In this document: positions 39,144-64,000 of the stretch, one piece after another
How positions within the stretch are numbered: the first letter of the stretch is position 1
Layout: each line of letters opens with the position of its first letter
Assembly: GCA_964524025.1 (NCBI GenBank)
Contig: CAZGBT010000003.1
Span: 602 to 64,601, forward strand
Direction: 5' to 3'
Length of the DNA: 64,000 bases
Origin: an uncultured archaeon
Lineage (GTDB): Archaea; Aenigmatarchaeota; Aenigmatarchaeia; CG10238-14; EX4484-224
Notes under the pieces: generated by a model
The model's database searches: none
The model's input: the letters and a program-made list of their open reading frames with translations, nothing else
Told to the model about the DNA's origin: nothing
Made by a program: the position numbers and the translations under genes

Positions 39144-39161
39144 GGCTTTAAAATTTCTATT

Positions 39162-41824: not shown

Positions 41825-41835
41825 TAAATTAAATT

Positions 41836-43062: not shown

Positions 43063-43074
43063 ATAAGTGATGCT

Positions 43075-47956: not shown

Positions 47957-48052
47957 AATTCTATTTTAGCTAAAATTAAATATTTAACATTTTTGTTTAA
48001 CATTATTACAACTATTTGGTAACTATTTTGCTGCTAAATGACAGTTATTTCG

Positions 48053-48784: not shown

Positions 48785-49275
48785 AATGCTAAAAAGCCAA
48801 TTCTGCTGCCCTTCGAAATTATAACTATCTCGCCACTATAATTGCCTGGAATTGCTTGAGAAGTATTCAATATAACTTCAACGCTTTTTTTACTAAATGG
48901 GCCAAGGATAAAAGATGAAGGCTTGAAATAAAGATAACGCGAGATGGTGCCAAACGCCAAAATTTCTACCTTAACCGCTTTAGTTAAATTATTAGAAACT
49001 TCTATAAATTTTCTCGAGGAAAAAACCTTAGAAATTGGTAACTTTCCGAAATTGAAAACATATGGCTCTATAGCAATGCCTATGGTTAGATTGGTTGTAT
49101 TTACCAACTGAACATAGGCAGGATACCTACTAATATAATAAGTACAAAGGGGGAACCGCAAAACTTTGGCAGTAAAGTTAGTTATTCCAAGTGGTTTAAC
49201 TATTGGTTTTGAAAAAATTGTGGCTATTATGCTCAAAGCTAATAAGCAAAGAATAACAAATTTTTCGCCTTTCAT
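48778..49275 (-). CDS. Secreted or signal-anchored hypothetical protein (165 aa)
   Basis: N-terminal FVILCLLALSIIATIF; tightly packed in the operon. Confidence 0.5.
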   Translation of the reverse strand: MKGEKFVILCLLALSIIATIFSKPIVKPLGITNFTAKVLRFPLCTYYISRYPAYVQLVNTTNLTIGIAIEPYVFNFGKLPISKVFSSRKFIEVSNNLTKAVKVEILAFGTISRYLYFKPSSFILGPFSKKSVEVILNTSQAIPGNYSGEIVIISKGSRIGFLALC

Positions 49276-49276
49276 A

Positions 49277-50212
49277 CTATCTAATTTTGAAATAGACTAT
49301 CAATGTTAATAGGATTATTAAAAAAAGTAGAATATAAGCTAATGGAAATTTTACTTCTTTTTTCTCTTTAATTTCATAAATTTCCGGAATTTCTAAAGTC
49401 GTATTAAAAATATCTATTCCTGTGCCGTAAGAAAGGAGAGCGGTTGTTGTATAATTACCTGGTTCTACCGACTTATCTAAAGTGATGGAAATCGATTTGA
49501 TTTCTCCTGGTTTTAAAACTACCCAATTTGAAGAGAAGGTCTTGGTAGTGTTTTCGTTTGTAATTTTTAATTCTTTTATTCGAGATATTAAAGTAACTGT
49601 TCCTTCGTTCTTTGTTATTACCCTTAACTCTAATTTTTTGTCAACCCTTCTCGGAACTATATCAATAATTTTCGCCTTTCTTATCGCAACGCCTTTAACA
49701 TAAAAAATTAGTGGAAATTGGATGAATGCTCTAACACTAATTCCTATCCCAGTTTTTGTGGGAAGCTTTGTTATGGATTCTGGTCTTATGTAAATTGCAT
49801 GATAACCAGGCTCTGCATTTTCAGGAACTTTAAGAAAAAAAGAAACCTCACTCGCACTTTTAGCGATTCCCTTAAGAAAAGCAATTTTTGGAGGTAAAGG
49901 TTTAAGTTTAACAGGGTTTTCTATAAATTCAAGCCATGTAGTCGAATCCTCTTGAGAAACGTTTTCTAAAACCTTCTTGTTTATAATTGAAAAAATGGAA
50001 AGGGGGTCTTCGTACAAAGGGTTAACTTTAATCCATAGATCTGAAAAATCGCGAGAAAATACATAAAAGCTAACTAATCTTCTTTCTCCAGGTTCTACTA
50101 CACCCAAATCTAATCTAGATGGAGAAGTCCCTAAGATTTGAGCAAAAGCTCTAGGCGGGCAGATTAATAGCAAGTAGACTAACAAAATCAAGCAAAATTT
50201 CCTCATAATCAT
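49277..50212 (-). CDS. Secreted hypothetical protein with a C-terminal TM anchor
   Basis: Start taken at MIMRKFCLILLVYLLLICPPRAFAQ (alternative ATG at 50206). C-terminal FPLAYILLFLIILLTLIVYF. Confidence 0.55.
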   Translation of the reverse strand: MIMRKFCLILLVYLLLICPPRAFAQILGTSPSRLDLGVVEPGERRLVSFYVFSRDFSDLWIKVNPLYEDPLSIFSIINKKVLENVSQEDSTTWLEFIENPVKLKPLPPKIAFLKGIAKSASEVSFFLKVPENAEPGYHAIYIRPESITKLPTKTGIGISVRAFIQFPLIFYVKGVAIRKAKIIDIVPRRVDKKLELRVITKNEGTVTLISRIKELKITNENTTKTFSSNWVVLKPGEIKSISITLDKSVEPGNYTTTALLSYGTGIDIFNTTLEIPEIYEIKEKKEVKFPLAYILLFLIILLTLIVYFKIR

Positions 50213-50251
50213 AAATTTACTTGCTACTAAAGAAAAAGTAGTTAACCATAA

Positions 50252-50286
50252 TGTTAAACGAAAATTTTTATAAAAAACGTTTAACA
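50252..50286. promoter_or_regulatory. Inverted repeat in the divergent promoter between two secreted-protein transcription units
   Basis: TGTTAAACG (50252-60) and CGTTTAACA (50278-86) flank the A/T-rich, TATA-like AAAATTTTTATAAAAAA. Confidence 0.3.
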
Positions 50287-50300
50287 AATTTTAAATTAGA

Positions 50301-51248
50301 ATGAAAAGGTTTATAACCTTAGCAAGCATTGCTTTACTACTCTTTTTAGTTCCATCGATAACAGTAACTCTAAGCCAATTTAAAGAACAAGCAGATGCTA
50401 CAGATACAGCCGTCGTCAACGTCAGCATTCAAGGAGTTAATGCTGTCGACATAAATCCAATCAACTTCACTTGGGCAAATCTACCAGTTCCCCGTAACTA
50501 TACCGAAAGTGGACCGAAGGCGTTCCAAGTTGAAAACATAGGTTCTACGAATATTACACACATTTGGGCATCGACAACAAACCCAACAAGCAACCCATTC
50601 GGTACTGGAGTTGCAACTAATTACGATGCTGGTCAATTTGTAGTCCTAATAAATAGTAGCAGTAGCTCTTACGAATGGGTTCTCTATCCAAATACAGTTT
50701 TCTTTAATGAATCTGTACCTACTTATATTGTCAACAAACCATCGGGATGGAACAACGGTGGCTTATTTACGAGAATTAGAACAGCTGGCTGGGAAAGCGA
50801 CGAAGGAGAGGAATATTTCGTTTTCGTCGTAAATGGAACACAAAACTGTACGGATGGAACAGTCTATATAGGAAAAGATCCACATACAAAAACTAAAACA
50901 GGAAGTATAGACTTTTCCGATCCCGCTAATTATGTAAGCTTCGGCCTTACTTCTACTAATGACAAAAAGTGGGGATATAAAGGCCCAATAGGGGATTATG
51001 GCAGCATAAATAACTATATCGACAAGTATTACGTTCTCGTCCCCTATGACTGTAAAAACATCACACTAATAGGATGGTCAAGAAGATATGATACTACTGC
51101 TGGAATCGATATAGGTTATTACCTATTCTCAGGAACGCTAGAGCCAGGTGCTGCTCTAGACTATCTAATATCTGTAGTAATTCCATACGGAGTTGCTCAG
51201 GGTGATGTAAAAACTGGTACTCTAACGATTTACGCTACTACAGCTTAA
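50301..51248 (+). CDS. Secreted T/S/N/G-rich hypothetical protein (315 aa)
   Basis: Signal MKRFITLASIALLLFLVPSITV. Several N-x-S/T sequons. Looks more G+C-rich than its neighbours. Confidence 0.6.
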   Translation: MKRFITLASIALLLFLVPSITVTLSQFKEQADATDTAVVNVSIQGVNAVDINPINFTWANLPVPRNYTESGPKAFQVENIGSTNITHIWASTTNPTSNPFGTGVATNYDAGQFVVLINSSSSSYEWVLYPNTVFFNESVPTYIVNKPSGWNNGGLFTRIRTAGWESDEGEEYFVFVVNGTQNCTDGTVYIGKDPHTKTKTGSIDFSDPANYVSFGLTSTNDKKWGYKGPIGDYGSINNYIDKYYVLVPYDCKNITLIGWSRRYDTTAGIDIGYYLFSGTLEPGAALDYLISVVIPYGVAQGDVKTGTLTIYATTA

Positions 51249-51279: not shown

Positions 51280-53205
51280 CTAAACTTCTATCCATTCAAT
51301 TTTTTCTTTTTTAATTGCATCTTCTAAAGTTTTTAAAGTCTCTTCTATTTGCTCTATTTCGCTTCTTAGACTTTTCGTGAGCATAGCAGAATTCTTTATC
51401 TCGCTTATCCTATCCATTAGAGTTTCCAAGGTTTGTCTAGTCTCGCTGAACCTTCTTTCCATTTCTTGAGTTTTATTTTCTAAAGAGGAAAACTTATGCA
51501 TTAATTCTTTAAATTTGTCCTCTACCTTACTTATTTTTTCTGCCATACTCTTTACCTCTTGAAGACCATCTTCAACAACTCCCAGCCTTTCTTTTGTCTT
51601 AATTATTCCATCGTTCAAATCTTTTCCTAATCTTTCGAATGAGCTAATTTTATTTTCTAGCTCACCCATTCGAGAAGAAAAGGCTTGTATTCTCTCCTTT
51701 AAAGTTCTAAGCTCTAAAGTAAGATTTCTTATAATATCCTTGCTCAAAATCTCTTGAATTTCCTTTCTAATTTCCTCTACTTTTTCATCCAGTTTCCTTT
51801 CCATCTCTCGAGTCTTATTTGCCAGCTCTTTTGACTCATCCTCCACCTCTACAAGCCTACTTTCAACAGCTTTTAACCTCTCTTTTGCCTTCTCGATTTC
51901 ATCTTTAAGATCTTCTCTTAGCTTTACAAGCAAACTAATTTTATTCTCTACTTGAGTAGAAAAACCTTCTATTTTTCTCTTTAAACTTCCAAGTTCTAGG
52001 TCTAATTTTCCGATAGCATCCTTATCTACTAACTTTGAAATTTCCTGAATCTTTATTTCAATCTCTCTTATCTTTTCCTCAATTCTTTCCCTTGCATTCT
52101 TTTCTTCGCCTACAGAAAATTTTAACTCATCTAAAATAGAAGACAAATAGTTAAACTTTGAGTATAATTTTTCTAAATCTTCTGTTTTGGCAAATTTTTC
52201 TTTTAACATAAATATTCCTTCAAACCTTTTAGAAAGGTCAGAAACAGTCTGATTAAGAACCTCAAACTTCTCTTCCAGATATCTAATTCTTTTTTCTAGG
52301 TTTATAGGTTGGCTTTTTCTTACTATTTGTTGCAAATTAAGCAATCTATTGTTCAAATCGAGAATTAGAGAATTAAACTTGTTCAATTTGTTTTCTACAT
52401 CATCCACAGTTGTATTAATAAATTTTCTAACCTTACTCTGAAAACCTAAAAATTCTTCCCTTAAATTTTTAAGCCTAGAAAGGTTTTCTAAATTTTCTTC
52501 CATTTGTTTAAGCCTTTTCTTAAAAATTTCGTAAGAACTTTCCACCAAATTTTTTAAATTTGATAGATCTTTCTCTAGTTCTAAAATTTTCCTTATTCTC
52601 TCCTTAAACTTCTCTTCAACTTCTGCTTTAATTTCGTCTTTTAAATCTTCAGCGATTTCCATACTTTTTATCTTTAGCTTTTCCTCTACAGTCGAAGCTA
52701 GGGAAATAAAATTAGAAGAAAGTTTTTTGAATTCGGATAGTAAGTTACGATAATTTTCAGAAAGCACTTTTAAAGAAAATTTTAAATTATCAATCCTTTC
52801 CTCTATTTCGCTAATTTTCTTTTCTAAATCCTCAAATTTTGATTCTAACTTCTTCAAATTTTGCTCTGCAGAAACCCTAACTTTCTCTTCTAAATCTTTT
52901 CTTAAAATCTCAAAGCCTCTTTCTTGCTCTTTTACTTTAATCCCTAATTCATCCACTTCTCTTAAGAGTTTTGAAATAATGGAAGAAAATTTTAAAGCAG
53001 ATTTAAGCTCTTTATATAACTTAAAAAATTCCTCTTCCCTTTTTTTCTGTTCGCTCTCGATCTCGAACGTTCTCTTTTCTATTAGCTTAAACTTCTCTTT
53101 TAGCTCATCTATCTCACTTTTCAATTCTACTATTTTCTTAGCTAAAATTTCCTTTTCTTTCCTAACTTCCTTAACCCTTCTTTCCAACTCATCTAATACT
53201 TTCAT
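51280..53205 (-). CDS. All-coiled-coil protein (641 aa), third of three
   Basis: K/E/L heptad-rich throughout with no TM or enzymatic motif. Internal ~95-aa duplication (LELGSLKRKIEGFSTQVENKIS... versus LELRTLKERIQAFSSRMGELENKIS...). Confidence 0.75.
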   Translation of the reverse strand: MKVLDELERRVKEVRKEKEILAKKIVELKSEIDELKEKFKLIEKRTFEIESEQKKREEEFFKLYKELKSALKFSSIISKLLREVDELGIKVKEQERGFEILRKDLEEKVRVSAEQNLKKLESKFEDLEKKISEIEERIDNLKFSLKVLSENYRNLLSEFKKLSSNFISLASTVEEKLKIKSMEIAEDLKDEIKAEVEEKFKERIRKILELEKDLSNLKNLVESSYEIFKKRLKQMEENLENLSRLKNLREEFLGFQSKVRKFINTTVDDVENKLNKFNSLILDLNNRLLNLQQIVRKSQPINLEKRIRYLEEKFEVLNQTVSDLSKRFEGIFMLKEKFAKTEDLEKLYSKFNYLSSILDELKFSVGEEKNARERIEEKIREIEIKIQEISKLVDKDAIGKLDLELGSLKRKIEGFSTQVENKISLLVKLREDLKDEIEKAKERLKAVESRLVEVEDESKELANKTREMERKLDEKVEEIRKEIQEILSKDIIRNLTLELRTLKERIQAFSSRMGELENKISSFERLGKDLNDGIIKTKERLGVVEDGLQEVKSMAEKISKVEDKFKELMHKFSSLENKTQEMERRFSETRQTLETLMDRISEIKNSAMLTKSLRSEIEQIEETLKTLEDAIKKEKIEWIEV

Positions 53206-55094
53206 TTTAACAGACCTATGATATCAATTAGCCTTTTTTCCAGTTTATTCTTAAAACTCTCAAAATCTTTTTCCAAATTTAATAATTTACTTTCAAGTTT
53301 CATCGAAGTTGCCGAGAAATTCTGAACCGTTGTCTCAATTGATCTAATGATATCTTTTATTTCTTCTATTTCTGCAACTCTTTTTTCTATTGCTTCAATT
53401 CGTTTTCTAACTTCCTTCTCCTTATTCGATAAAACCTCTAACCTTTCAACTAGTTTCTTTTCCTTTATGTCTTTCAAATTTTCTTTTAGTCCTTTTAAAT
53501 CATCTTTAATAATAACAATTTCGTTTCTAACTTCAGAGATCTTCTCTTTCAATAATTTTTGAGATTTGATTACCTCATCTTGAATCTGTTTTACCTTCTT
53601 AACTCTATCTTGGAATGTTTCTAAATCTAAGCTTAATCTATCAACTTTTCCTACTTCCTTTTCTAAAAGTTCAAAGCGGCTGGTTAAATTTTTAGTTATT
53701 TCCTTAAGTTTGTTTATTTCGTCCCTACTGAGTTTTATCTTATCGCCTAAATTACTAATTTCATCTTTCAATTTTTTTATTTCCTCATTAATAATTGAGG
53801 TAAAATTTCCTACTTCATCCAATTTCCTACTTATAACCTCTCTATCTTTCCATATTCTTTCTACCTCTTCTTTTAATCTTTCAACCTCACTAACCAAAAA
53901 TTCAAGATTTTTAATCTTTTTAGCAAAACCTGAAGATTCTTTTTCCAAATTGCTAATTCTTTCGGATAAATTCGCTACTTTGCTTTGTAATTGATCTAAA
54001 TCTTCTATGCTTTTATCTTTTAACGACTCGAACGATTCCAATTTATGGTACAATTCTTTTTGTCTGTTTTCTAGATCTTCTGTCTTTTCGACAAGCTTGT
54101 TTATTTTAGTAGAAAAATTTGCTTCAACCTTTTCAACTTCTTCTTTTAGATTTTTTAACTCATAAGCAATTTTTTCTTCTAATTTCAACTTTGGTATAAG
54201 ATCTTCGATTTTTTTGTTAATTTTTTCCATTTCTACTTTTTTAGCAAAACTCAAGGATTCTTTAAGTAAACTATCAATTTTCTCAGACAAATCTGTTAAT
54301 TTGTCCCGAAATCTATCTACTAAGCTTAGTTCATTTTTAATTTTACTGATTTCTTCCTCTAAATTTTTCAGGCTGGCAAACTGTAAAGAAGTTCTTTCTA
54401 AATCTTTTTTTATTTTGTTTAACGATTCTAATAACGACTTCAACTTTAGTTCGAGATCTTTAATCTTACCTTCAAAAGAAACAGTCATTTCTGGTAAAGA
54501 GCTTTCTACTTTCTTTTTAAAAATTTTAAACGACTTAAGTTCCAAAGTTACAGAGCTTAGTTTTTCCGTTAACGAATTAATTGCGCGCCTTAAATTATCA
54601 AGATTTTTTAGTATATCCTCTTTTTCTTTTTTCTTTACAAACTTCTTTTCAAATCTTTCCTTTATCTCTTCTAATTCTTTAGCGAGGTTAGTAAAATTGC
54701 TCAAATTGTCCTTTAGGGTAGCGATCTCTCTATAAATTTGAGTAATTCTACCTTCCTCTTCCCTTAAAATTCTTTTAGTTTCTTCCCTTATTCTCTCTAT
54801 TTTATTTGAAAATTTTGCCTTATCCATTTCTTGTTTCTCTCTTAAGTTAATAAGCTCAAACATGAATCCTTTAACCTTATTTTCAAAAAGCGAAACACTT
54901 CTTTTGAAACCTTCGATTTCTTTAGAAATTAAAGAATAAGTTTTATCAACTCTGAGTTTTAAGTCTTCATATTTTTTCATTCTATCCTCTAATTCCACAA
55001 TTCTTTCTTCTGCAGAGTTTAGTCTACTTTTTATTGTAGCTAAACTTTCTTTCAAACTTTTTAGAACAACCGCTAAATCTTTTAACTCTTTCAT
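53202..55094 (-). CDS. All-coiled-coil protein (630 aa), second of three
   Basis: Heptad-rich K/E/L sequence. 4-nt overlaps with both neighbours. Confidence 0.75.
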   Translation of the reverse strand: MKELKDLAVVLKSLKESLATIKSRLNSAEERIVELEDRMKKYEDLKLRVDKTYSLISKEIEGFKRSVSLFENKVKGFMFELINLREKQEMDKAKFSNKIERIREETKRILREEEGRITQIYREIATLKDNLSNFTNLAKELEEIKERFEKKFVKKKEKEDILKNLDNLRRAINSLTEKLSSVTLELKSFKIFKKKVESSLPEMTVSFEGKIKDLELKLKSLLESLNKIKKDLERTSLQFASLKNLEEEISKIKNELSLVDRFRDKLTDLSEKIDSLLKESLSFAKKVEMEKINKKIEDLIPKLKLEEKIAYELKNLKEEVEKVEANFSTKINKLVEKTEDLENRQKELYHKLESFESLKDKSIEDLDQLQSKVANLSERISNLEKESSGFAKKIKNLEFLVSEVERLKEEVERIWKDREVISRKLDEVGNFTSIINEEIKKLKDEISNLGDKIKLSRDEINKLKEITKNLTSRFELLEKEVGKVDRLSLDLETFQDRVKKVKQIQDEVIKSQKLLKEKISEVRNEIVIIKDDLKGLKENLKDIKEKKLVERLEVLSNKEKEVRKRIEAIEKRVAEIEEIKDIIRSIETTVQNFSATSMKLESKLLNLEKDFESFKNKLEKRLIDIIGLLK

Positions 55095-56371
55095 TTTAAA
55101 CCTTCAACCAATTCTTTTAAACCTTTAAGCTGCGAATCTATAATTTTCTCTTGTTTTGATAGCTTTTCCTCTATTGATTGAACTAACCTTTCCAAATTAT
55201 TAGTTTTTCTTTCTAATTCTACAATGGAATTTTTAAGCTTGGAAACCAAAAAATTCAAACTTCTGATATAACTAAAGATCTTTTCTTTATCAAAACTTTC
55301 TATCCATTTGTTAATTCTTTCCAGACTATCCTTATAACCTTCCTGCTTAAATTTAAGAGAAGATAAATCGCTCTTCAAACCTGCAAATTTTTCATTTAAC
55401 CTTTCAACTTCTTTAGAAAGAATTTCTTGCGAACTTACAAGCTCAGAGATTCCTTTCCCAATTCTTACTAAATCGCTTTTAATATCCCCTATTACATCGG
55501 CATATTCTTTTTTTACACTCTCTAAGCTAGCTTTCAAGTTATCCCTAACCGATTTTATCTCTTTTTCTAGCTTCTTTATTTCGGTCAATTTTTTCTCAAA
55601 ATTTTCCAATTCTTTTTCGCAAAACTTCACTTTTTTGACGTCTCTGATTGTATTGTGTAATCTGTCAGTTATTTCGGAAATGCTTTTCTTAATCTTTCTT
55701 ATATCGTCTTTAAAGGGTTCTAACCTAGTCTCTACTTCTTTCTTTATATTCTTTGGGAGTTCTCTTTCTGCTATAGAAAAAAGATCCGAAATTCTATCTA
55801 AAGTTTCTTTTCCAACTTTATTTTTTAAATCCAAAATTTCCTTTTTTAAAACTGGAATCTCTGAAATCATTTTTATAGAAGTTTCTAAGGCAGAGATTCT
55901 ATTGGAAATCTCTTCTTTTACGAGCTTTTCTAAATTTTTTAGGTTTTTTTCTAATTGTAAAACTTTCATGGCTTCTTCTTCTGGAGTTAATTCTGGTAAT
56001 TCGCCAAAAATTCCTCTAGTTTTTTTCCTTTCCTTTAAAGCTTCCCTTATTTCGTTAAGTTGAGTCTCTAAGGAAGTTATTTTTTCTACGTGCTTGAGCT
56101 TTTCGTCTATCTCCTCTATCTTTTTGGAAAAGGTCTGCTTAAGAATTGAAAGCTCTTCTTCCAAGCTTTTAGTCTTTATCTTTCCGATTCTTCTCTCTAC
56201 GTTCTTTAAGTTTTCAAAGATAGTCTTCAAGCTGTCTTCTATTCTTTTATTTATTTCATCAAATTTCGGCTTTATTTTTTCCAAAACTTTCTTTTCAACC
56301 TCCTCTTCCTTGATTTTACTGGATTTAGAAGCTACTTCTTCTATAAGCTGGGCTAAAACTTCTTCTTCCAT
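55091..56371 (-). CDS. All-coiled-coil protein (426 aa), first of three
   Basis: Heptad-rich K/E/L sequence with no signal peptide or TM helix. Confidence 0.75.
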   Translation of the reverse strand: MEEEVLAQLIEEVASKSSKIKEEEVEKKVLEKIKPKFDEINKRIEDSLKTIFENLKNVERRIGKIKTKSLEEELSILKQTFSKKIEEIDEKLKHVEKITSLETQLNEIREALKERKKTRGIFGELPELTPEEEAMKVLQLEKNLKNLEKLVKEEISNRISALETSIKMISEIPVLKKEILDLKNKVGKETLDRISDLFSIAERELPKNIKKEVETRLEPFKDDIRKIKKSISEITDRLHNTIRDVKKVKFCEKELENFEKKLTEIKKLEKEIKSVRDNLKASLESVKKEYADVIGDIKSDLVRIGKGISELVSSQEILSKEVERLNEKFAGLKSDLSSLKFKQEGYKDSLERINKWIESFDKEKIFSYIRSLNFLVSKLKNSIVELERKTNNLERLVQSIEEKLSKQEKIIDSQLKGLKELVEGLK

Positions 56372-56541
56372 TATTTATACCTCTCCATTAACCTAAAACC
56401 AAGTTTTTTCCATTCTTTTATCCTTTTTCTTAAAATTTTCATTCTATGCTTAACAAAAAAGACTTCTGTTTCAGTTCTTTTTCTTCTAAAATGGAAAAAA
56501 AGGATTAAAAAAACTATCAAAAGTAAAGGAATTAAATACAT
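56371..56541 (-). CDS. Small single-pass membrane protein (56 aa); below the ORF-track cutoff
   Basis: Manual translation gives MYLIPLLLIVFLILFFHFRRKRTETEVFFVKHRMKILRKRIKEWKKLGFRLMERYK. Its TAA overlaps the ATG of the first coiled-coil gene (TAATG). Confidence 0.4.
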   Translation of the reverse strand: MYLIPLLLIVFLILFFHFRRKRTETEVFFVKHRMKILRKRIKEWKKLGFRLMERYK

Positions 56542-57354: not shown

Positions 57355-57807
57355 TTATACGTTTTTAAAATGGTTGGTTATTGTGTTTATCAGATTTTCT
57401 ACAACAAAAATTTCTGTAAAGAAAATTGAAGGAAAAGACAAAACAAAGAATAGATGGGAAAACAAACCGCCAAAAATTATTTGAAAGTCAGCAGATGAAA
57501 GCGAGAAAGATAAACCAAGAATTATTAAACCCAAATTTTTAAGTGCATCCTCTTCTGACAAAAGGAGTAGTATAGAAGCTAGTATCGTAAAAAGAAAACC
57601 TGATAAATAGATCAGGGGATTTAATTTTGTGCAGGCCACTTCTGTATAGGGGAAGTTGCTCGAAGAATCGTAAATAACTGCTTTTGCTTTACATCCAAAT
57701 GCGCTAGCTATTAAAGCATGGCCTATTTCGTGTAGGCTTAAAGCTAGGATTATAGCTATTAGGTTTAGGAAAAAATAATTAACTAAAAATTTTGCAATTA
57801 GCTTCAT
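57355..57807 (-). CDS. Small polytopic membrane protein with an HExxH motif (putative intramembrane zinc metalloprotease-like)
   Basis: About 4 hydrophobic helices. LSLHEIGHALI lies at the end of the first helix. Confidence 0.55.
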   Translation of the reverse strand: MKLIAKFLVNYFFLNLIAIILALSLHEIGHALIASAFGCKAKAVIYDSSSNFPYTEVACTKLNPLIYLSGFLFTILASILLLLSEEDALKNLGLIILGLSFSLSSADFQIIFGGLFSHLFFVLSFPSIFFTEIFVVENLINTITNHFKNV

Positions 57808-57845: not shown

Positions 57846-60800
57846 CTAAACTGTTAATTCTTCTAATCTTTTCCTAAGCTTCCTCCTAAGCTCCTCGTAA
57901 GCTCTAGCAGATATCAAACCTTCTCTATATTCCCTTTCTAATACCCTAAGAACCCTTTCAAGCCTCTCTCTTTCTTTCCTTACCTCTTCAGGCATTCTAG
58001 CAACTCTTATTTTTCTAAGCTCCTCTATCCTTGGTCTTATTTTTTCTTCAAACTCAATAAGTTTATGCTTCCACTTTACTGCGAAGAATACTACAAAGAT
58101 TAAAACAACAGCTATTGAAATGAGCAAAATTATTAGCCAGAGTGGGGGAGCTGGTACAGTAATTACTTTTATCTTTGGTGCTATAGAAAGCAAATAGAAA
58201 CCTCTATCGATCAAATTGGAAATTACTATCAAAGTAGCTGCACATTCGTCGAATTTTTTTCTCTTCAAATAATCCTTAGCAACCTTTATTTGAGTTTTAA
58301 TTTCTTCTATAATACTTCTAACAGCAGAAACATCATAGCCAAGTTTCTCTTTATAATCAGTTTGGTTTATCAATTCTTTTAATCTTTTTTCTAACTTAGC
58401 AATTTCATATGCTAGAAGTTCTTCTCTACTTTTGAATAAGTTAAATTTAAAACTTTTTTTAGTTGTTGTTTCGTTAGAAATGACAAGAAGCGACGCATTA
58501 TAAAACTTAGAATAGTTTACTTTTGGCGGTGATATTTTTAACCTTATTTCAATAGATTTTCCTGGTTCTAGCAGCTCTATTTTAGAAGGAATAAAAGTAA
58601 ACCAATTGGCTGGTGCGCCAAGTATAGCTAGTTCAATTTTATGCAAAACAACAGAACCCGTATTATTAAGGTAAAATATTATGTAGCGGGTCCATCCTCC
58701 TTCTATGCTAATTTCGCTAGGAAATCTCCAAATTATTAATCTAGCCACAGGCGGTACAGCAGGAGGTGCGGGAGGCGGTGCCACTGGTACAGGAACTTTT
58801 GTAACTACTCTAAAACTTTCCCATTTTAAAATGGGTGGCTTAACGGGATCGTAGGTTAATTTTACCTTCAAATAATAAGTACCTAAAGGTTGGTCTGAAA
58901 ATATGTAAACACTCCTAAGCAAAGTTTTATTCGACAAAGCTGGCATGTAGATTGCTTCAGAAGCATAGTACCAAGTATCGTTAGCACCCTCAACCCAATA
59001 TTCTAAGTCTACATCTTGGGAAACTTCTCCCTGATTTTCGATGTAAATTTCAAAAGGTAGAGTTTCACCAGGGCTTACTTCCTTTTCTAACAGTTTTATC
59101 CTAACGTCATAAGGGCCTCCTGCTGAAACTCTAAACATTGCAACACGTTGGGTAAATTTACCATCTTGATAAGCAGTAACGTAAGCGGTATAGGCTCCTG
59201 TAGGCGTATCTGAAGGCATGGCGTATTTGTAAATATAGTATCCTGTTGCTACCCTATCCATTTCATCGATAGTAGCAAAAAGATATAGATTGCCAGCAGG
59301 ATCCTTAACGGTTAGATTAAGCTGTTCAGGATCTACTGGCAATCCAGAAATATTATAAACTATTATTGAAAACTTCATAACGTTGTTTGGATACCAAACT
59401 ACTGTAGTTTCTACATCAACGTATAAGCTTTCTAATGAAACTTTTGCAGTCCCACTAACTTTAAAAACATAAAGATCCTCGCTGTTCGATGAATGGTTGA
59501 CTATATTATCCCAATAAGAGCTAAAAGCTATTAAAGTATAATTTCCGAGTGGAGCATCGCTTGTTATCCTAAAACTTGGTAGCGGATTGATATATCCTTC
59601 TTCGTTAGTTGTAAAATTAGATTCGTAAGTTAAGTTTTGGAGTGAATCATAAATTTTTATAGTAACGCTTACATTTCCTAATGGATTGTCCGTATAGTCA
59701 AAAACTCTGTAGAAAAACCTACCATCGCTTCCTGGTGGATATTCTTCTTGATAAGTAGAAAGGAATACAACCAACTTTGCATAAACGTAAAACTTAGATT
59801 CTGACTGGGTTGTTATTCCAACTTTATCTTTAGAATAAACTATAATTTCATAAATCCCTCTTAAGCTTGTATCCCCTTTGGTACCTGGATATTGGATGTA
59901 CCATAAAGAATGTTTATCATCATATTGCTCAACAAGCGTCATATTAAGACTATCGATAGTACCATTAGGTCTTGTTACGTTTATTCTTACCCATTCAATT
60001 CCGTAGCCAGACCTATCGGTTATGTTAGCATAGATATCGATATGACCCGTTTGCTCAATTTTTCCCGGAAAGACGGAGACGTTAATCAAAGGTCCTACAT
60101 AAGGATTTATTACCGTTGTTAAAAGCATAAAATCAGGAGATGCGTCAATATCTAAAGCGTCCACTTTAAAGGTTGAATTATAAAACTTAAGCTCGGCCCC
60201 TGTAACATTATAATAAACGCCGAAAACATAAGATTCTTGTGGGTTTAAGGTAAAATTCGTAACGTTTACCCAAGTTTTATTACCTTCTCTTGGTGTTATA
60301 GTAAAGTTTATAGGTAGATTTCCAGTATTGTTTACTCTAACTACGCACATTAAACCTTCAGGAACAGTAAAATTGGCTTCACAATGAGTTGGATGCATAG
60401 TCCAGGTTTTGTTAGTAAGAACTGTTACGTTAAGATATAGCCAATCGTAACCATTATTGGAGGTTGTTACATTCAATATTCCGCTATAATTTCCTGGCGG
60501 ATAGCCAGCTGGAATTGTAATGTTTATTTGAATAGATTGGACCTTTCCTCCTTCTAGGCTTGTTATATTTGGTATGAACTCGAACTGGAAATCTTCTAGG
60601 CCTATTACTGTAAATTTAATTCCTTCTATTGGGTCGTTACCAGTAGAATTTAGAGTAAAATTGCCTAAGATAGATTCTTTATTCTGTTCAACCTGATTGT
60701 AAACATAGTTTTCAGGAATATAGAAAGAGGGGTTGGAAGTTATAGTAACATTTACGCTTCTAGTTAAACTCTTAGTTCCCTCTCCTATATCCTCCCAGTA

Positions 60801-63602
60801 GTACGTTAGATTAACTAAGTAAAAACCCGATCTTGTTAAGGCTGGTATCGTTAGGTTAGCAGAAAATGTACAACTATTATTTATTGAGATGTTTCCGCAG
60901 AATTTGTAAGTTAAATTGGCTTGCCAATTAGCTGGTAAATAGAGTTTAAAATAGGAATTGAAAGCAGTCACGTTTCCTATATTTGTCACATTTCCAAATA
61001 GCTCGAACCAGTCTGATTGATAAGCTGTTATTGTGGTTGAAGTATAATTTGTTGGGGTAAGGTTAAACTCTACTTTGGCACCAGAAACTGTTACGTTAAG
61101 ATATAGCCAATCGTAACCATTATTGGAGGTTGTTACATTCAATATTCCGCTATAATTTCCTGGCGGATAGCCAGCTGGAATTGTAATGTTTATTTGAATA
61201 GATTGGACCTTTCCTCCTTCTAGGCTTGTTATATTTGGTATGAACTCGAACTGGAAATCTTCTAGGCCTATTACTGTAAATTTAATTCCTTCTATTGGGT
61301 CGTTACCAGTAGAATTTAGAGTAAAATTGCCTAAGATAGATTCTCTTCCTCGACCGACTATATTATACACATGGGTCTCTGGTATGTGGAAAGAGGGATT
61401 AGAAGTTACAATAACGGTAAAATTGGAAGACGTTGAATTTGTTGAGTTATCTGTGTTCCTCCATTTAGCTATTACAGTAACATTATAAGAACCAGATCTG
61501 GTTAAAGTTGGAATCGTTATGTTAAATGCCTTAATGCAATAACCGCTTATCGGTATTAATCCGCATTCTTCAAAAGTAGAATTTGCTTGCCAATTATTTG
61601 GCAAAATTATCGTTACATTAACATCGTAAGCAGTTCCGTTCCATGTATTATAAACTTTTACTTTGAAATCGAACCAGTCTGATTGATAAGCTGTTATTGT
61701 GGTTGAAGTATAATTTGTTGGGGTAAGGTTAATAGCTAAATAGGTTACGTAATCGTCTGCAGAAAAAGTATCTTCTCCATCCCCCCAGTTACCGTCTCTC
61801 GAAGCATTACAGGTTAAAATATAAAGACCTGGCTCTGACGGTGCCTTAAAGGAATAAAGATAAGTCCCATTATTGTAATCTGTAACGTTCCCATTAGCAT
61901 TTGTTTCATCGAAATAACAAACTATAGTACAATTAGGAAGAAGTGTGTCATTTCTGTAGTTCCTCACCTCTACACTTGCATTTATAGTCCTATTTATGAG
62001 ACCATACTCGTTCAAGACTTTTACAAAAACGTTTAGCAAATTAGTGACGTTAAAAGATGTTGTATTTTTTCCTAAAAAGGTTCCAGATGAATCATAAGCT
62101 CTCAAAGTTATATTCCAAATTCCTGTAGAATCGCTTTCATTTATTACAAAAGAACCAGTAAATAACTTGTCTCCAGCCACTTGATCAACGCCTGTCCCGT
62201 TATCATAAAGCAATATCCAAAAATCATCAGATTTATCTGGAGTTCCTCTATCTATGGTTGCATTAAGATAAGCTGTTAAATTGTAAGGATCATATGTTAT
62301 GTTAGCAAAAATTACTACCTCTTCCTTCCTGTTATATACAGGATATTCAGTATAAGGAATAAAACTTACTGATAAGTATTCTGGATTAGATAGGATTTTC
62401 TTAAATGGTTGTCTGAAACCTTCTAAAATTTTATTCAAAAATTCGCTAACGGCGTCACCACCGCCGAAAGTCGAAAAGTAAACGCATGCTTTTTCAGAAA
62501 TTTGCGTTATATAAATTGTATTCAAATGAATTCCTGTTCTTCCAGCCTCTGGAGAGTCTAAAGCATAGAAATTAGTAGTACCAGTTTCATTAAGATTTAT
62601 AACGCCCAAAACCTCTCCTCCAAAACCTCTTGAATAAGCGTAAGAGTATGGGTCTGAAGAATCGTAATATCTAATTATAACTTCTTCGCTTTTGAAAGTT
62701 CTATTAACGTCAAAAGCTAAAGCCCCTGCTTTAGTCGAATTTCTAGTAGCACTTCCGTTTAGCAATTGTTCAATTAATATAAAACTACCATAAGCTTGGG
62801 GTCCGACTTTCTCGTAGAAATAATAAATTTTCTTTCCAGTTAATTCTCCACTTTTCTGATAAGGATTTCCGAGGATTACTTCGTCACCATAAATTTCTAT
62901 TTTTATTCTTACGGGCCCGCTAGTAATAATAAAAGATGATGCATTTATCGTAAAGTTGTAAGTTCCATTCGAGTATTCTATGTATTCAGCAGTTCTTTCA
63001 TTAGAAGGTATGTCCTTAAAAACTGTACTAAGTCCATAATCCTGAACTTGATATATTCCTGTTGTATAATCTCCTCTTGATAAATCTATGAAATACATAA
63101 AGTAAGATGTATTAACTCTAATTTCATCACCTACTACCGCATAAGAAAGTTGGGTTGAATAATTTGCTTGCTCCTTCTGACCATTCTCTAAAATATCAAA
63201 ATAAACATAAAAGATTCTTTTCTGATTTAAAGGAGTCGTTCCGTTTGCTATGAAGATTAGAGTTCCATAAGCATTAGATGTAGCGTTAAAATTATCTGCT
63301 TTTTCAAATTGATAAGGAATTTCGTAAAGAAACTCGCCAGAAGTTATGTTGTATTCTATAACTCTAATAGAATTTTCGTCAAAAGTACCGCTCATACCGA
63401 GTTGCTCTATAAGTTTTGTAAAGTTTATATCTGTTTCTATAGGCCAATTAGTTCTTTCCACCCCTGTTGAATTAACCTCTATTCTTACTCTAAAATACCA
63501 GCTTGTATTCCACCATTCATAAGTTACTCCACTCACAGGAATAGCTAAAAATGTTAGAACTATAGGAATTAAAAATATTGCTATTTCTTTTTTAATTTCC
63601 AT
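57846..63602 (-). CDS. Giant envelope protein (1918 aa) with a signal peptide, many beta-sandwich repeats dense in N-x-S/T, a Pro-rich linker, a C-terminal TM helix and a 76-aa cytoplasmic R/E coiled-coil tail
   Basis: N-terminal IAIFLIPIVLTFLAIPVSG. Linker PVPVAPPPAPPAVPPV. TM helix LWLIILLISIAVVLIFVVFFAV, then KWKHKLIEFEEKIRPRIEELRK...LRKRLEELTV. Confidence 0.8.
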   Translation of the reverse strand: MEIKKEIAIFLIPIVLTFLAIPVSGVTYEWWNTSWYFRVRIEVNSTGVERTNWPIETDINFTKLIEQLGMSGTFDENSIRVIEYNITSGEFLYEIPYQFEKADNFNATSNAYGTLIFIANGTTPLNQKRIFYVYFDILENGQKEQANYSTQLSYAVVGDEIRVNTSYFMYFIDLSRGDYTTGIYQVQDYGLSTVFKDIPSNERTAEYIEYSNGTYNFTINASSFIITSGPVRIKIEIYGDEVILGNPYQKSGELTGKKIYYFYEKVGPQAYGSFILIEQLLNGSATRNSTKAGALAFDVNRTFKSEEVIIRYYDSSDPYSYAYSRGFGGEVLGVINLNETGTTNFYALDSPEAGRTGIHLNTIYITQISEKACVYFSTFGGGDAVSEFLNKILEGFRQPFKKILSNPEYLSVSFIPYTEYPVYNRKEEVVIFANITYDPYNLTAYLNATIDRGTPDKSDDFWILLYDNGTGVDQVAGDKLFTGSFVINESDSTGIWNITLRAYDSSGTFLGKNTTSFNVTNLLNVFVKVLNEYGLINRTINASVEVRNYRNDTLLPNCTIVCYFDETNANGNVTDYNNGTYLYSFKAPSEPGLYILTCNASRDGNWGDGEDTFSADDYVTYLAINLTPTNYTSTTITAYQSDWFDFKVKVYNTWNGTAYDVNVTIILPNNWQANSTFEECGLIPISGYCIKAFNITIPTLTRSGSYNVTVIAKWRNTDNSTNSTSSNFTVIVTSNPSFHIPETHVYNIVGRGRESILGNFTLNSTGNDPIEGIKFTVIGLEDFQFEFIPNITSLEGGKVQSIQINITIPAGYPPGNYSGILNVTTSNNGYDWLYLNVTVSGAKVEFNLTPTNYTSTTITAYQSDWFELFGNVTNIGNVTAFNSYFKLYLPANWQANLTYKFCGNISINNSCTFSANLTIPALTRSGFYLVNLTYYWEDIGEGTKSLTRSVNVTITSNPSFYIPENYVYNQVEQNKESILGNFTLNSTGNDPIEGIKFTVIGLEDFQFEFIPNITSLEGGKVQSIQINITIPAGYPPGNYSGILNVTTSNNGYDWLYLNVTVLTNKTWTMHPTHCEANFTVPEGLMCVVRVNNTGNLPINFTITPREGNKTWVNVTNFTLNPQESYVFGVYYNVTGAELKFYNSTFKVDALDIDASPDFMLLTTVINPYVGPLINVSVFPGKIEQTGHIDIYANITDRSGYGIEWVRINVTRPNGTIDSLNMTLVEQYDDKHSLWYIQYPGTKGDTSLRGIYEIIVYSKDKVGITTQSESKFYVYAKLVVFLSTYQEEYPPGSDGRFFYRVFDYTDNPLGNVSVTIKIYDSLQNLTYESNFTTNEEGYINPLPSFRITSDAPLGNYTLIAFSSYWDNIVNHSSNSEDLYVFKVSGTAKVSLESLYVDVETTVVWYPNNVMKFSIIVYNISGLPVDPEQLNLTVKDPAGNLYLFATIDEMDRVATGYYIYKYAMPSDTPTGAYTAYVTAYQDGKFTQRVAMFRVSAGGPYDVRIKLLEKEVSPGETLPFEIYIENQGEVSQDVDLEYWVEGANDTWYYASEAIYMPALSNKTLLRSVYIFSDQPLGTYYLKVKLTYDPVKPPILKWESFRVVTKVPVPVAPPPAPPAVPPVARLIIWRFPSEISIEGGWTRYIIFYLNNTGSVVLHKIELAILGAPANWFTFIPSKIELLEPGKSIEIRLKISPPKVNYSKFYNASLLVISNETTTKKSFKFNLFKSREELLAYEIAKLEKRLKELINQTDYKEKLGYDVSAVRSIIEEIKTQIKVAKDYLKRKKFDECAATLIVISNLIDRGFYLLSIAPKIKVITVPAPPLWLIILLISIAVVLIFVVFFAVKWKHKLIEFEEKIRPRIEELRKIRVARMPEEVRKERERLERVLRVLEREYREGLISARAYEELRRKLRKRLEELTV
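60421..61732. repeat. Tandem 666-nt (222-aa) duplication inside the giant envelope gene
   Basis: 60421-60678 matches 61087-61344 (258 nt, no mismatch seen by eye). 61003-61066 matches 61669-61732. The stretch between these blocks is strongly diverged. Confidence 0.85.
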
Positions 63603-63796
63603 ACTATCTTCCTCCCAATACCTCGTTTCGTTTTCTCGACGCTTTCTTCTACTAGGTCTAAAGCTTTTAGCTTATAGCAATAAAACCTTGCTGTTGCCCA
63701 CGAAACTTTAAGCTTCTTCGCTATTTGGTAAGTAGAAAGAGGCGATGCTCTAAGAAATTCGATTATTTTTCTTTCGATTCCAGAAATTTTTGACAC
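63581..63796 (-). CDS. Small wHTH DNA-binding protein (71 aa), first gene of the envelope operon
   Basis: IIEFLRASPLSTYQIAKKLKVSWATARFYCYKLKALDLVE. 22-nt overlap with the giant gene. Confidence 0.6.
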   Translation of the reverse strand: MSKISGIERKIIEFLRASPLSTYQIAKKLKVSWATARFYCYKLKALDLVEESVEKTKRGIGRKIVWKLKKK

Positions 63797-63870
63797 ATTT
63801 TATATTAATATATCAATAGATTAATACATTGATATAGTGAGATATTGATATCTCAATATATTAATACAAA
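63797..63870. promoter_or_regulatory. Divergent promoter/operator candidate with repeated boxes
   Basis: Three ATTAATA(T/C)A boxes at 63804, 63820 and 63860. An 8-bp inverted repeat TGAGATAT-TG-ATATCTCA at 63838-63855. TATA-like TTTATATTAATA. Confidence 0.3.
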
Positions 63871-64000
63871 AGCCGTTATAGATATAGGAGCTACTTACAT
63901 AAGATTCGGCAAAGGGGAAGAGAATGGGACTTTTTTACTCAAAAAGAAAGTTAAAACAGAGAAAAGAAGCGTAAGAAATTTTTTAGAACAACTAAAGAAA
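63845..64000 (+). CDS. Partial ASKHA/ROK-like sugar kinase N-terminus (continues beyond the window)
   Basis: KAVIDIGATYIRFGKG resembles the phosphate-1 motif of ROK/glucokinase-type kinases. The only candidate start is a TTG at 63845, and the 3' end is truncated. Confidence 0.35.
   Translation, partial: MISQYINTKAVIDIGATYIRFGKGEENGTFLLKKKVKTEKRSVRNFLEQLKK

Follow-up and report, generated by a model that had tools for sequence, protein, structure and literature searches.

Directly downstream of an archaeal MinD-type ATPase gene, a small-celled, uncultured archaeon of the Aenigmatarchaeota carries a gene for a small transmembrane (TM) protein (TM56) followed by three genes for long helical rods (CC1 to CC3), and this set is a lineage-restricted conserved module of Aenigmatarchaeota-type DPANN archaea. 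Since distant relatives share these genes and no named family matches them, they probably encode an undescribed membrane-attached scaffold. Our more specific reading, to which we give a probability of about 0.45, is that the module encodes a membrane-tethered, cytoplasmic, hetero-oligomeric coiled-coil scaffold close to the membrane, which would serve the adjoining membrane-binding MinD as its dedicated partner or cargo, by analogy with bacterial PomXYZ. The window is the whole stretch of 64,000 nucleotides analyzed here (contig CAZGBT010000003.1, positions 602 to 64,601), and the features of interest, numbered from its first letter, are listed below (L numbers denote related loci).

63798..63871, no strand: AT-rich element with nested TTGATAT/ATATCAA palindromes and 27-nt direct repeats
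63581..63796 (-): winged-helix regulator, 71 aa, opening the operon; 22-nt overlap with the start of the 1918-aa gene
57846..63602 (-): surface protein, 1918 aa, rich in N-glycosylation sequons, with NPCBM_assoc and MG2 domains; the operon's first large gene
57355..57807 (-): 3-TM M50B-like membrane protein, 150 aa, HEIGH motif; also conserved ahead of MinD in L003, L005 and L013
56565..57335 (-): archaeal MinD-type ATPase, 256 aa, with deviant Walker A SGKGGVGKTT and C-terminal amphipathic helix SFWRRLLEKLR
56371..56541 (-): TM56, 56 aa; its stop overlaps the CC1 start
55091..56371 (-): CC1, 426 aa, all-helical
53202..55094 (-): CC2, 630 aa, 81% heptad coiled coil
51280..53205 (-): CC3, 641 aa, 82% heptad coiled coil
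51397..51999 (-): tandem internal duplication in CC3, aa ~403-486 aligning with ~497-603

TM56 and the three rods (1697 aa for CC1 to CC3 together) overlap on one strand, with a TAATG junction between TM56 and CC1 (1-nt overlap) and ATGA junctions between CC1 and CC2 and between CC2 and CC3 (4-nt overlaps, 55091-55094 and 53202-53205), as the original prediction had placed them. Stoichiometric co-translation and filament formation, as first suggested for the rods, are conjecture. Given the local base composition, the chance of an open frame is 6e-20 to 1e-29 for CC1-3 and 0.003 for the 56-codon TM56 ORF. The ORFs are real genes rather than low-complexity artefacts, in keeping with the first view, since syntenic sets of orthologs occur in genomes with 33-51% GC. 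About 55% of rod residues are K, E, L or I, and the hydrophobic periodicity is 3.44-3.56. The share of each protein lying in strict 28-residue heptad windows is 81-82% for CC2 and CC3, compared with at most 22% in shuffles, and only 38% for CC1; the claim of near-total K/E/L/I heptad sequence does not hold for CC1, and the rods are segmented into 14-19 register blocks each, the longest of ~75-80 aa. Motif and hydrophobicity scans of CC1-3 found no Walker A motif, hydrophobic or TM segment, signal peptide or class III signal, in agreement with the earlier claim that Walker motifs, TM helices and signal peptides are absent. In profile searches, the rods reached no cut-off of a named cytoskeletal or SMC-type family, SMC, Rad50, arcadin-4 and EzrA included, which supports the earlier view that they match no recognized archaeal cytoskeletal family.

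Six CC1-family loci were recovered, the window included, with the gene orders given below (numbers are protein lengths in aa).

Window: MinD-TM56-CC1-CC2-CC3
L003: MinD-CC1-449-706
L013: MinD-76 aa TM-CC1-422-304
L014: MinD-90 aa TM-CC1-687-731
L011: MinD-CC1 (769)-104
L012: 93 aa TM-CC1-1080-480, without MinD nearby

An orthologous MinD lies directly upstream of CC1 in five of the six, so that the proposed link between the rods and the adjoining ATPase is conserved. A small protein with an N-terminal single TM helix precedes CC1 in four loci, two further long coiled-coil ORFs follow it through tight or overlapping junctions in five, and junctions overlap or span at most 16 nt in all. At L012, neither the 3.8 kb of upstream contig nor the 10 kb downstream of the CC1 locus contains a MinD. 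In L005, L006 and L008-L010, close orthologs of MinD stand without adjoining rod genes, and thus MinD does not need the module; related Aenigmatarchaeota loci retain the surface-protein/two-MinD cluster and lack the rods.

CC1 is a real, distinct family with conserved motif-bearing non-heptad N-terminal blocks, and it is the conserved core of the module. Its members are mutual best hits (E 1e-7 to 1e-75) and rare, with 7 matches in 1.84e9 representative proteins, one cluster being named Candidatus Aenigmarchaeota. The N-terminal ~250 aa carry the family motifs LIEE[IV][SA]SK, RGIFGELPE and IPxxIKKEVExRxEP, with P206 and P219 invariant, and heptad coiled coil makes up the C-terminal ~210 aa. 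In AlphaFold2 models, both CC1 (pLDDT 52) and CC2 (pLDDT 64) are helix practically throughout, the latter with four long helices (2-150, 155-272, 308-450, 457-629). CC2 is the fastest-diverging rod (26% identity to its L003 counterpart, 43 bits); CC3 is also 26% identical to its counterpart there (E 1e-18), and the lengths of both shift quickly, partly through internal duplication. The ~95-aa duplication previously noticed in CC3 was confirmed, with Smith-Waterman scores of 144-180 against maxima of 98 in 51 control segments from real coiled coils and 79 in shuffles. The description of the rods as paralog-like was not upheld: the pairwise similarity of CC1, CC2 and CC3 in the window (33-37 bits) equals the coiled-coil background between non-corresponding proteins, hhalign was non-discriminating and could not separate the rod groups, and CC1 forms its own family. 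Paralogy among CC1, CC2 and CC3 is not demonstrable from sequence, and with hhalign non-discriminating, orthology of CC2 and CC3 outside L003 is mainly positional.

The ATPase was correctly recognized as MinD: it scores 204.9 bits against TIGR01969 (cut-off 201.75) and is a bona fide archaeal MinD. The MinDs compared form a single orthologous group (43-75% identical) apart from a second MinD-like paralog, and all the orthologs bear the C-terminal amphipathic helix (hydrophobic moment 0.59-0.86). Conservation is much higher in MinD (66% identity) than in the rods (26-36%). Upstream, the M50B-like protein of L013 has lost its HExxH motif, and the AT-rich palindrome and repeat region is the putative promoter/operator of the 12.5-kb operon. 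The 1918-aa surface protein is anchored through a C-terminal TM segment and also has a helical cytoplasmic tail of ~75 aa, which is not a rod-specific docking site since it is just as conserved in rod-less loci.

TM56 has a single hydrophobic segment at its N-terminus (aa 1-21), then a basic juxtamembrane RRKR and a short helical tail, likewise basic (net charge +12); by the positive-inside rule its C-terminus is predicted to be cytoplasmic. The TM helix, basic tail and stop/start overlap first ascribed to this ORF all hold, but other pipelines do call it, contrary to its description as unannotated. The suggestion that it is a membrane tether is favored because three other loci also couple the first rod gene to one for a small single-TM protein. 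These counterparts in position and architecture, of 76 aa (L013), 90 aa (L014) and 93 aa (L012), are mutually homologous (E 1e-5 to 7e-7). Counting against it, the small TM gene is absent from the L003 and L011 loci, and no significant sequence similarity was found between TM56 and the three counterparts.

From gene order and sequence features we infer that the rods interact with MinD, hetero-oligomerize and are tethered to the membrane. CC1, CC2 and CC3 would co-assemble via their heptad regions, and the small TM protein would pin the assembly beneath the membrane. ParA/MinD genes typically adjoin genes for their cargo (PMC10241942), and these ATPases bind the N-terminal region of a partner and contact the membrane via a C-terminal amphipathic helix (PMC11407121). 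Because partners usually bind in this way, we propose that membrane-located, ATP-bound MinD dimers may contact the conserved N-terminal part of CC1, with ATP turnover by MinD positioning or partitioning the rod assembly. Since the operon and cluster around the module encode large anchored surface proteins, the scaffold may serve to organize a surface or host-contact zone. Both the L012 locus and the MinD orthologs that lack adjoining rods count against a MinD partnership. The conserved N-terminal motif of CC1 is acidic and serine-rich, whereas the typical peptide of ATPase-activating partners is positively charged, which also counts against this reading.

The same two observations on MinD would fit an intermediate-filament-like cytoskeleton independent of it (cf. 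crescentin, FilP/Scy, Helicobacter Ccrp), in which a small cell bounded by an S-layer would owe mechanical support or its shape to the rods, and MinD would be a mere neighbor in a surface-protein cluster. The segmented heptad architecture and weak, sub-threshold matches of CC2 to Filament (E 0.007) and of one CC1 homolog to Rod_CreS (E 9e-5) also point this way. However, family cut-offs are not reached, rod lengths range widely (304-1080 aa), and MinD stands immediately upstream in 5/6 loci from several divergent lineages, so we regard this explanation as credible but unlikely.

It is improbable that the rods are exported fibrous attachment proteins, forming stalks or fibers with the neighboring adhesin-like proteins like the sigma-1-like coiled-coil proteins (CCPs) that have been proposed at DPANN type-IV-pilus loci. 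The genes are embedded among large anchored surface proteins, DPANN coiled-coil proteins, including those of Aenigmarchaeota, have been modeled on reovirus sigma-1 6GAO (Hamm et al., 2024, PMC11291902), and the CC1 profile weakly matches 6GAO (25 bits, E 7e-5). That match is one among dozens of generic helical matches, however, and the absence of export signals and TM helices from CC1-3, a sequon density of 0-1.1 per 100 aa compared with 4.8 in the 1918-aa surface protein, the cytoplasmic tail predicted for TM56 and the absence of CpaF or TadC pilus genes among the scanned window ORFs all argue against export, and the first two also support a cytoplasmic location.

Quite improbable, too, is that the proteins are not rods but amphipathic-helix coats that bind and remodel membranes directly (apolipoprotein, PspA/Vipp1 or perilipin-like). 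Apolipoprotein A-IV is the best PDB sequence match of the CC1 profile (39.5 bits, E 3e-9), faint Apolipoprotein, DUF948 and DUF1664 matches occur in several module proteins, and the conserved, proline-punctuated helices of CC1 have a local periodicity of 3.66-3.7 (aa 15-98 and 169-252). All these matches fall under curated cut-offs and are typical of generic helical repeats, and the dominant periodicity of the rods goes with a/d-type hydrophobic spacing, with K or E making up ~33-35% of residues and narrow hydrophobic stripes. Headless SMC/Rad50/ASRP relatives, or relatives of SMC-like defense proteins such as JetC and LmuB, that work on DNA and use the ParA/MinD-type ATPase as segregation motor are very improbable, since the top NCBIfam and PADLOC matches (SMC, Rad50, ASRP, JetC and LmuB, 30-68 bits) are confined to coiled-coil arm regions and lie 5-30 times below curated cut-offs, the rods lack Walker A and match no DNA-binding domain in Pfam or NCBIfam, the ATPase bears a MinD-type membrane helix, and no phage, virus, defense-system or defense-island signals were found.

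Among known systems, Haloferax volcanii MinD4 and MinD2 belong to the same ATPase family as the MinD described here (TIGR01969 cut-off reached) and position non-divisome cargo, namely motility and chemotaxis machinery and CetZ1 (10.1101/2020.04.03.021790; PMC11588486; PMC11621097), although in another lineage and gene neighborhood; among haloarchaeal MinDs we found none reported to have a coiled-coil partner in its operon. Crescentin, FilP/Scy, Helicobacter Ccrp and EzrA share segmented heptad rods, and EzrA is anchored by an N-terminal TM helix and weakly matches CC1 and CC2 (26-30 bits); every match to EzrA and the bacterial coiled-coil cytoskeleton is below gathering scores, however, the FtsZ/MreB context is absent, and the putative anchor is encoded here by a gene of its own, that of the 56-aa protein. 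The DPANN CCPs (Hamm et al., 2024, PMC11291902) are likewise long coiled-coil proteins of unknown function, conserved in DPANN including Aenigmarchaeota and encoded near cell-surface genes, but they are defined by 'nucleopore-like' domain HMMs and neighboring CpaF/TadC genes, whereas our locus has MinD and showed no pilus genes among the scanned window ORFs. By analogy only, and with no homology, Mycoplasma pneumoniae, a minimal-genome, host-attached cell, has long cytoplasmic coiled-coil proteins (HMW-type) in the internal core of its attachment organelle, under an adhesin patch (PMC8191905; PMC4959525), and it is speculation that our module acts at a host-contact site. PomX/PomY/PomZ of Myxococcus xanthus differs in that no sequence relationship with the rods is shown, the PomZ matrix is the nucleoid whereas MinD here has a membrane-type amphipathic helix, three rods and a TM protein occur in an archaeal DPANN host, and the basic N-terminal activating peptide is not evident in CC1. 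It nevertheless pairs a ParA/MinD-family ATPase with adjoining long coiled-coil scaffold proteins that activate it (PMC7993993; PMC13170346), its positioned cargo is a multi-protein scaffold, and PomZ is better conserved than its fast-diverging partners PomX and PomY (PMC7993993), the same pattern as that of MinD and the rods.

The MinD-type ATPase gene of the window is followed by four minus-strand ORFs, and we propose that their products TM56, CC1, CC2 and CC3 would form a membrane-tethered hetero-oligomeric scaffold that serves as a partner or cargo of the ATPase. From sequence features and gene order, we put the probability of this reading at about 45%.

56371-56541, minus strand: TM56, small membrane protein, 56 aa
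55091-56371, minus strand: CC1, first coiled-coil protein ("rod"), 426 aa
53202-55094, minus strand: CC2, second rod, 630 aa
51280-53205, minus strand: CC3, third rod, 641 aa

The junctions TM56/CC1, CC1/CC2 and CC2/CC3 read TAATG, ATGA and ATGA with overlaps of 1, 4 and 4 nt, and the original prediction of consecutive rod ORFs overlapping by 4 nt at both rod junctions was correct, coordinates included. At the local base composition the per-codon stop probability is 0.099, and open frames of 426–641 codons would be expected by chance with p = 6e-20 to 1e-29 (p = 0.003 for 56 codons, the size of TM56). A low-complexity artefact, already considered improbable in the original prediction, is ruled out by the conserved synteny and by the GC content of the module loci, which ranges from 33% to 51%; because the loci span this range, the rods are not a product of AT-richness.

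All three rods are rich in K, E, L and I and nearly devoid of P, G, C, W and H, with a hydrophobic periodicity peak at 3.44–3.56. Neither a Walker A motif (pattern [AG]xxxxGK[ST]) nor a hydrophobic segment was found in CC1-3, in agreement with the earlier claim that Walker motifs and TM helices are missing. The rods had also been described as heptad sequence almost throughout. This applies to CC2 and CC3, where strict 28-residue heptad windows cover 81–82% of the sequence versus at most 22% in shuffles, and does not apply to CC1, where they cover only 38%. AlphaFold2 produced low-confidence models, both essentially all helical, for CC1 (7-sequence alignment, pLDDT 52) and for CC2 (single sequence, pLDDT 64), the latter with four helices of 118–173 residues. 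Each rod is segmented into 14–19 register blocks, the longest of ~75–80 residues. The internal duplication suspected in the last rod is real, as residues ~403–486 of CC3 align to ~497–603 with a score of 144–180 and the maximum among 51 genuine coiled-coil segments used as a control was 98. TM56 has the expected N-terminal TM helix and basic tail: a single hydrophobic segment (aa 1–21) is followed by RRKR and a tail (net charge +12) that is predicted to be cytoplasmic by the positive-inside rule. The suggestion that the rods are paralog-like is not supported. BLASTP among the window rods gives gapped alignments of 26–28% identity and 31–35 bits, which an all-against-all alignment of 17 module proteins from six loci places at the level seen between any non-corresponding coiled-coil proteins. 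Since this is background, common ancestry can be neither demonstrated nor dismissed, and the three rods behave as separate lineages.

The ATPase upstream of TM56 scores 204.9 bits against TIGR01969 (archaeal MinD), above the cut-off of 201.75, and carries a deviant Walker A, SGKGGVGKTT, at aa 8–17 (xKGGxGK[ST]) that is kept in 10 of 10 orthologs. A C-terminal amphipathic membrane-binding helix distinguishes MinD-like from ParA-like members of the family (PMC11407121). The window protein has a C-terminal amphipathic helix, SFWRRLLEKLR, with a hydrophobic moment of 0.77 (0.59–0.86 in orthologs), and judged by this predicted helix it is MinD-like (membrane-matrix), not ParA-like (DNA-matrix). The closest MinD homologs with an organism name are all from Candidatus Aenigmarchaeota/Aenigmatarchaeota, except one from Candidatus Micrarchaeota. 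A distance tree intersperses MinDs from loci with the module among those from loci without it, all in one orthologous group apart from MinD2, the second MinD-like ATPase paralog of the same surface-protein cluster. This interleaving suggests that the module is old and has been repeatedly lost or relocated.

Contigs encoding close MinD homologs were compared together with those encoding CC1 relatives.

Gene order at loci carrying a CC1-family gene (CC, coiled-coil protein)
Window: M50-like, MinD, TM56, CC1, CC2, CC3
L003: M50-like, MinD (66% identical), CC1 (36% identity, E 1e-75), 449-aa CC, 706-aa CC (26% identity to CC3, E 1e-18), followed by the secreted-protein/HTH/MinD2/surface sub-cluster also present in the window
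L013: MG2 surface protein, M50-like, MinD, 76-aa TM protein, CC1 homolog, 422-aa CC, 304-aa CC
L014: MinD, 90-aa TM protein, CC1 homolog, 687-aa CC, 731-aa CC
L011: MinD, CC1 homolog (769 aa, motif block duplicated), 104-aa CC
L012: 93-aa TM protein, CC1 homolog, 1080-aa CC, 480-aa CC; MinD absent from the available flanks

Linkage to the ATPase is kept, with MinD adjoining the CC1-family gene in five of the six loci, and module junctions in all loci overlap or lie at most 16 nt apart. Module rods from all loci have a periodicity of 3.47–3.69 and heptad coverage well above shuffles. Their lengths range over 424–769 aa (CC1), 422–1080 aa (second rod) and 304–731 aa (third rod), a variation that stems partly from internal duplication. 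The small TM proteins of L012, L013 and L014 are mutually homologous (E 1e-5 to 7e-7); TM56 shows no significant sequence similarity to these three; its layout is the same as theirs, with a TM helix at the N-terminus and then a helical tail. Such a small TM gene is absent in L003 and L011. N-terminally anchored BLAST alignments link L013_422 to L012_1080 and L014_687, and the window's CC3 (W_CC3) to L3_CC3, L013_304, L012_480 and L014_731 (rods named by locus and by length or position). With hhalign, the CC2/CC3 positional groups, represented by shallow profiles, gave cross-group probabilities of 88–92% versus 74% and 16% for same-position comparisons; the method fails to separate the groups from the coiled-coil background, and CC2/CC3 orthology is therefore mainly positional.

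Other Aenigmatarchaeota loci (L005, L006/L007, L008, L009 and L010) retain close MinD orthologs and the surface-protein neighbourhood and are missing CC1-3; the second MinD-like ATPase is also kept in L005 and L010. In L006 (10797-11285), and also in L007, the gene after MinD encodes a protein of 162 aa that has TM helices at its N-terminus and a coiled coil at its C-terminus; in function it may be a compact equivalent of the rods and TM56 together. In L012, the gene after the trio codes for a DUF7504 protein (10409-10939), and L009 has both a DUF7504 protein and a KaiC/RecA-like ATPase ~1–2 kb downstream of MinD (11785-13286). The association of DUF7504 with these loci may be recurrent.

Searched exhaustively with phmmer against 1.84 billion representative proteins, CC1 gave only seven matches at E <= 1e-3: the query, one full-length ortholog (38% identity), one unrelated surface protein and four distant relatives (P0123, P0124, P0125 and P0127). 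Motif blocks in their N-terminal halves are common to the relatives, so CC1 is more than a featureless rod. These blocks are LIEE[IV][SA]SK, a (R)GIFGELPE-type break and a ~90-residue block, ...RISxLE...IP...G.E.L..I..L...[IL]P..IKKEVE.R.EP..D, with two invariant prolines. In the first, all four closer sequences keep K16; in distant homologs the motif lies 25–165 aa from the N-terminus. One family member shares its 90% cluster with an NCBI protein encoded by a Candidatus Aenigmarchaeota MAG. On sequence grounds, the CC1 family is real and rare. In a word-indexed homolog search, no match at E <= 0.01 was obtained with a 91-column profile of the motif block; genome-collection scans with the MinD and CC1 alignments gave no confirmed locus, and metagenome scans that took P0124 or the CC1 alignment as query returned nothing. 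CC2 had 0 significant matches among 8000 candidates in the word-indexed search because the exact CC2 (53202-55094) is missing from that 15-billion-protein collection, in which CC1, CC3 and TM56 are present. The exact CC2 is encoded on two contigs.

The rods had been predicted to fall outside named families, and no named cytoskeletal or SMC-type cut-off was reached in Pfam/NCBIfam profile searches. Pfam, NCBIfam and PADLOC yielded generic coiled-coil matches far below curated cut-offs (SMC/Rad50/ASRP arm regions, arcadin-4, EzrA, SpiroCoCo, JetC, LmuB, ATG17 and DUF1664; for PADLOC, arm-region matches to JetC, LmuB and DruC only) with one nominal exception. This is a partial match to Baculo_PEP_C (PF04513; CC2 50.0, CC1 40.9 and CC3 31.1 bits versus a gathering score of 38), which is accompanied by ~25 other generic helical families and is shared by six of the seven CC1 homologs. 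We regard it as non-specific, reflecting composition and helical repeats and not functional membership. Arcadin-4 (Rkd4), a crenactin-associated coiled-coil protein, is matched at 32.0 bits by CC3 and 25.6 by CC2 versus a cut-off of 860, and EzrA at 29.8 and 26.6 bits versus a gathering score of 39.6; the rods also have no TM helix, whereas EzrA carries one at the N-terminus of the same polypeptide. Among the characterised coiled-coil families tested, we detected no sequence relationship to the module. A viral origin found no support: neither a scan of IMG/VR nor tblastn searches of phage records with CC1 and CC3 gave a match.

Other roles for such rods can be envisaged. They could build an intermediate-filament-like cytoskeleton independent of MinD, which we consider unlikely: CC2 scores 16.6 bits with the Pfam Filament model versus a gathering score of 40, and Rod_CreS matches only one CC1 homolog (E 9e-5), also below its gathering score. 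An improbable alternative is that they are exported as sigma-1-like fibres, as suggested for the CCPs, coiled-coil proteins of DPANN type-IV-pilus loci (PMC11291902). When the PDB was searched with the CC1 family profile, reovirus sigma-1 did come up, together with apolipoprotein A-IV, chemoreceptors and designed bundles, at 25–40 bits and all generic helical. Against export stand the missing export signals, the low sequon density of the rods and the absence of type-IV-pilus CpaF/TadC genes, none of which occur among the window ORFs scanned (every ORF of at least 400 aa included) or the genes called in L003 and L011–L014. Membrane coats of apolipoprotein or PspA type, to which the apolipoprotein A-IV match might be related, have an even smaller chance. 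That the rods are headless SMC-like proteins is barely credible: SMC/Rad50/ASRP models match arm regions only, at 30–68 bits versus cut-offs of 300–1087, and an SMC/Rad50-like identity proper is rejected for want of ATPase heads (Walker A absent). A Foldseek search of PDB with the CC2 model discriminated nothing, finding only SMC arms and chemoreceptors (best E 0.26).

The window is chromosomal archaeal DNA of 33% GC with genes for RNase P RNA, tRNAs, PheRS, an intein-containing RFC subunit, a Cdc6-like protein and eIF2-gamma. The RFC-type clamp-loader subunit (9181-11979) contains an intein that carries a LAGLIDADG homing-endonuclease domain, and a 98-nt tRNA found by Rfam on the minus strand at 18922-19019, absent from the ARAGORN list, is probably an intron-containing archaeal tRNA. 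The rods form the distal end of a ~12.5-kb minus-strand operon with intergenic gaps of at most 38 nt, in the order 71-aa HTH, 1918-aa surface protein, 150-aa M50B-like protein, MinD, TM56, CC1, CC2, CC3. The 71-aa winged-helix/HTH gene and the AT-rich block upstream of it occupy 63581-63871. The gene shares 22 nt with the start of the surface-protein gene. Three direct repeats of 27 nt accompany the nested TTGATAT/ATATCAA palindromes of the block, which is probably an autoregulated promoter/operator. A bacterial-type promoter/terminator scan gave fewer sites than shuffles; its models are bacterial and the host archaeal, hence the scan is uninformative. A 63-aa HTH paralog of the regulator (47765-47956, 35% identity) opens the MinD2 sub-operon.

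The 1918-aa protein (57846-63602) is a sequon-rich surface protein (92 N-x-S/T sequons versus ~22 expected) with a C-terminal anchor, in which the stretch GNFTLNSTGNDPIEGIKF...YDWLYLNVTV is present twice as a long near-identical internal repeat. Its helical cytoplasmic tail, which may be SHOCT-like, has a motif kept in five loci (...ER.RL.R.LE.LE.E...G.IS...Y.E.K...). The tail is equally conserved where rods are present or missing, and was therefore rejected as a rod-specific docking site. The M50B-like protein (57355-57807) has three TM helices and reads HEIGH in the window and HEFGH in L003. In L013 (4567-5004) HExxH is lost, so protease activity may not be its conserved role. Downstream of the rods lie four secreted/anchored proteins, the paralogous small HTH, the second MinD-like ATPase and a 741-aa surface protein. 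This Aenigmatarchaeota cluster (44845-51248), which has no family assignment, recurs in L003, L005, L009 and L010, with or without the coiled-coil trio; its secreted/anchored proteins are of ~315, 336, 165 and 243 aa, its surface protein is a CarboxypepD_reg protein of 740–770 aa, and the whole may be a surface-structure assembly system. A glycogen-type carbohydrate cluster (37854-44241; GH57, amylo-alpha-1,6-glucosidase, a second GH57 and a GT4 glycogen-synthase-like protein) adjoins it.

Given this operon, one possible role of the proposed scaffold is the organisation of a zone at the surface or of host contact. In the most specific version, a MinD-positioned, membrane-tethered three-rod lattice would be the cytoplasmic core of a polar or contact-site organelle specific to DPANN, clustering the operon's giant adhesin-like proteins where the episymbiont touches its host; we view this as a long shot. 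If true, it would be the first MinD-plus-scaffold positioning system described in Archaea, and the Mycoplasma attachment organelle, with its coiled-coil core, would be convergent in function. To our knowledge, archaeal MinD proteins are widespread with few known cargos, all in haloarchaea, and DPANN cell biology, including host attachment, division and the internal structures seen in cryo-tomography, is almost unexplored. With this module, which occurs in DPANN archaea, an archaeal MinD gains a set of candidate partners that is concrete and conserved. As the module is small, with four genes besides MinD, and is defined by sequence, the hypothesis can be tested directly in vitro. Cryo-ET of Aenigmatarchaeota enrichments also gains a specific structure to seek. 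Its significance would be modest if it is only a lineage-specific structural filler.

Our literature searches turned up no archaeal coiled-coil operon described as linked to MinD, no archaeal MinD with a dedicated partner comparable to MinE, ParB or PomX/PomY, and no report of a partner operon in studies of haloarchaeal MinD2 and MinD4. The DPANN CCPs, which are loosely defined, belong to type-IV-pilus loci (PMC11291902), and the module is set apart from them by its own gene context. The partner proposal draws on the following points. Genes adjacent to ParA/MinD ATPases usually encode a cargo or partner (PMC10241942), and conservation is asymmetric, with 66% identity for MinD and 26–36% for the rods between the window and L003. 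Partners typically touch the ATPase through their N-terminal region (PMC11407121). In the proposed scaffold, the role of conserved adaptor would fall to CC1, and that of fast-evolving structural rods to CC2 and CC3. The closest likeness is to Myxococcus PomXYZ, in which the ParA/MinD ATPase PomZ works with the coiled-coil proteins PomX and PomY, a polymerising scaffold and ATPase activators, and is far better conserved than either (PMC7993993, PMC13170346). Here too, coiled-coil genes sit next to the ATPase, a linkage conserved in five of six CC1-family loci, and the ATPase is conserved above the rods. [quoted passage not shown] PomXYZ is a bacterial, functional analogue, and we propose that the module represents the same pairing of a ParA/MinD ATPase with a coiled-coil scaffold partner in a new form that is archaeal, predicted to be membrane-tethered and built of three rods.
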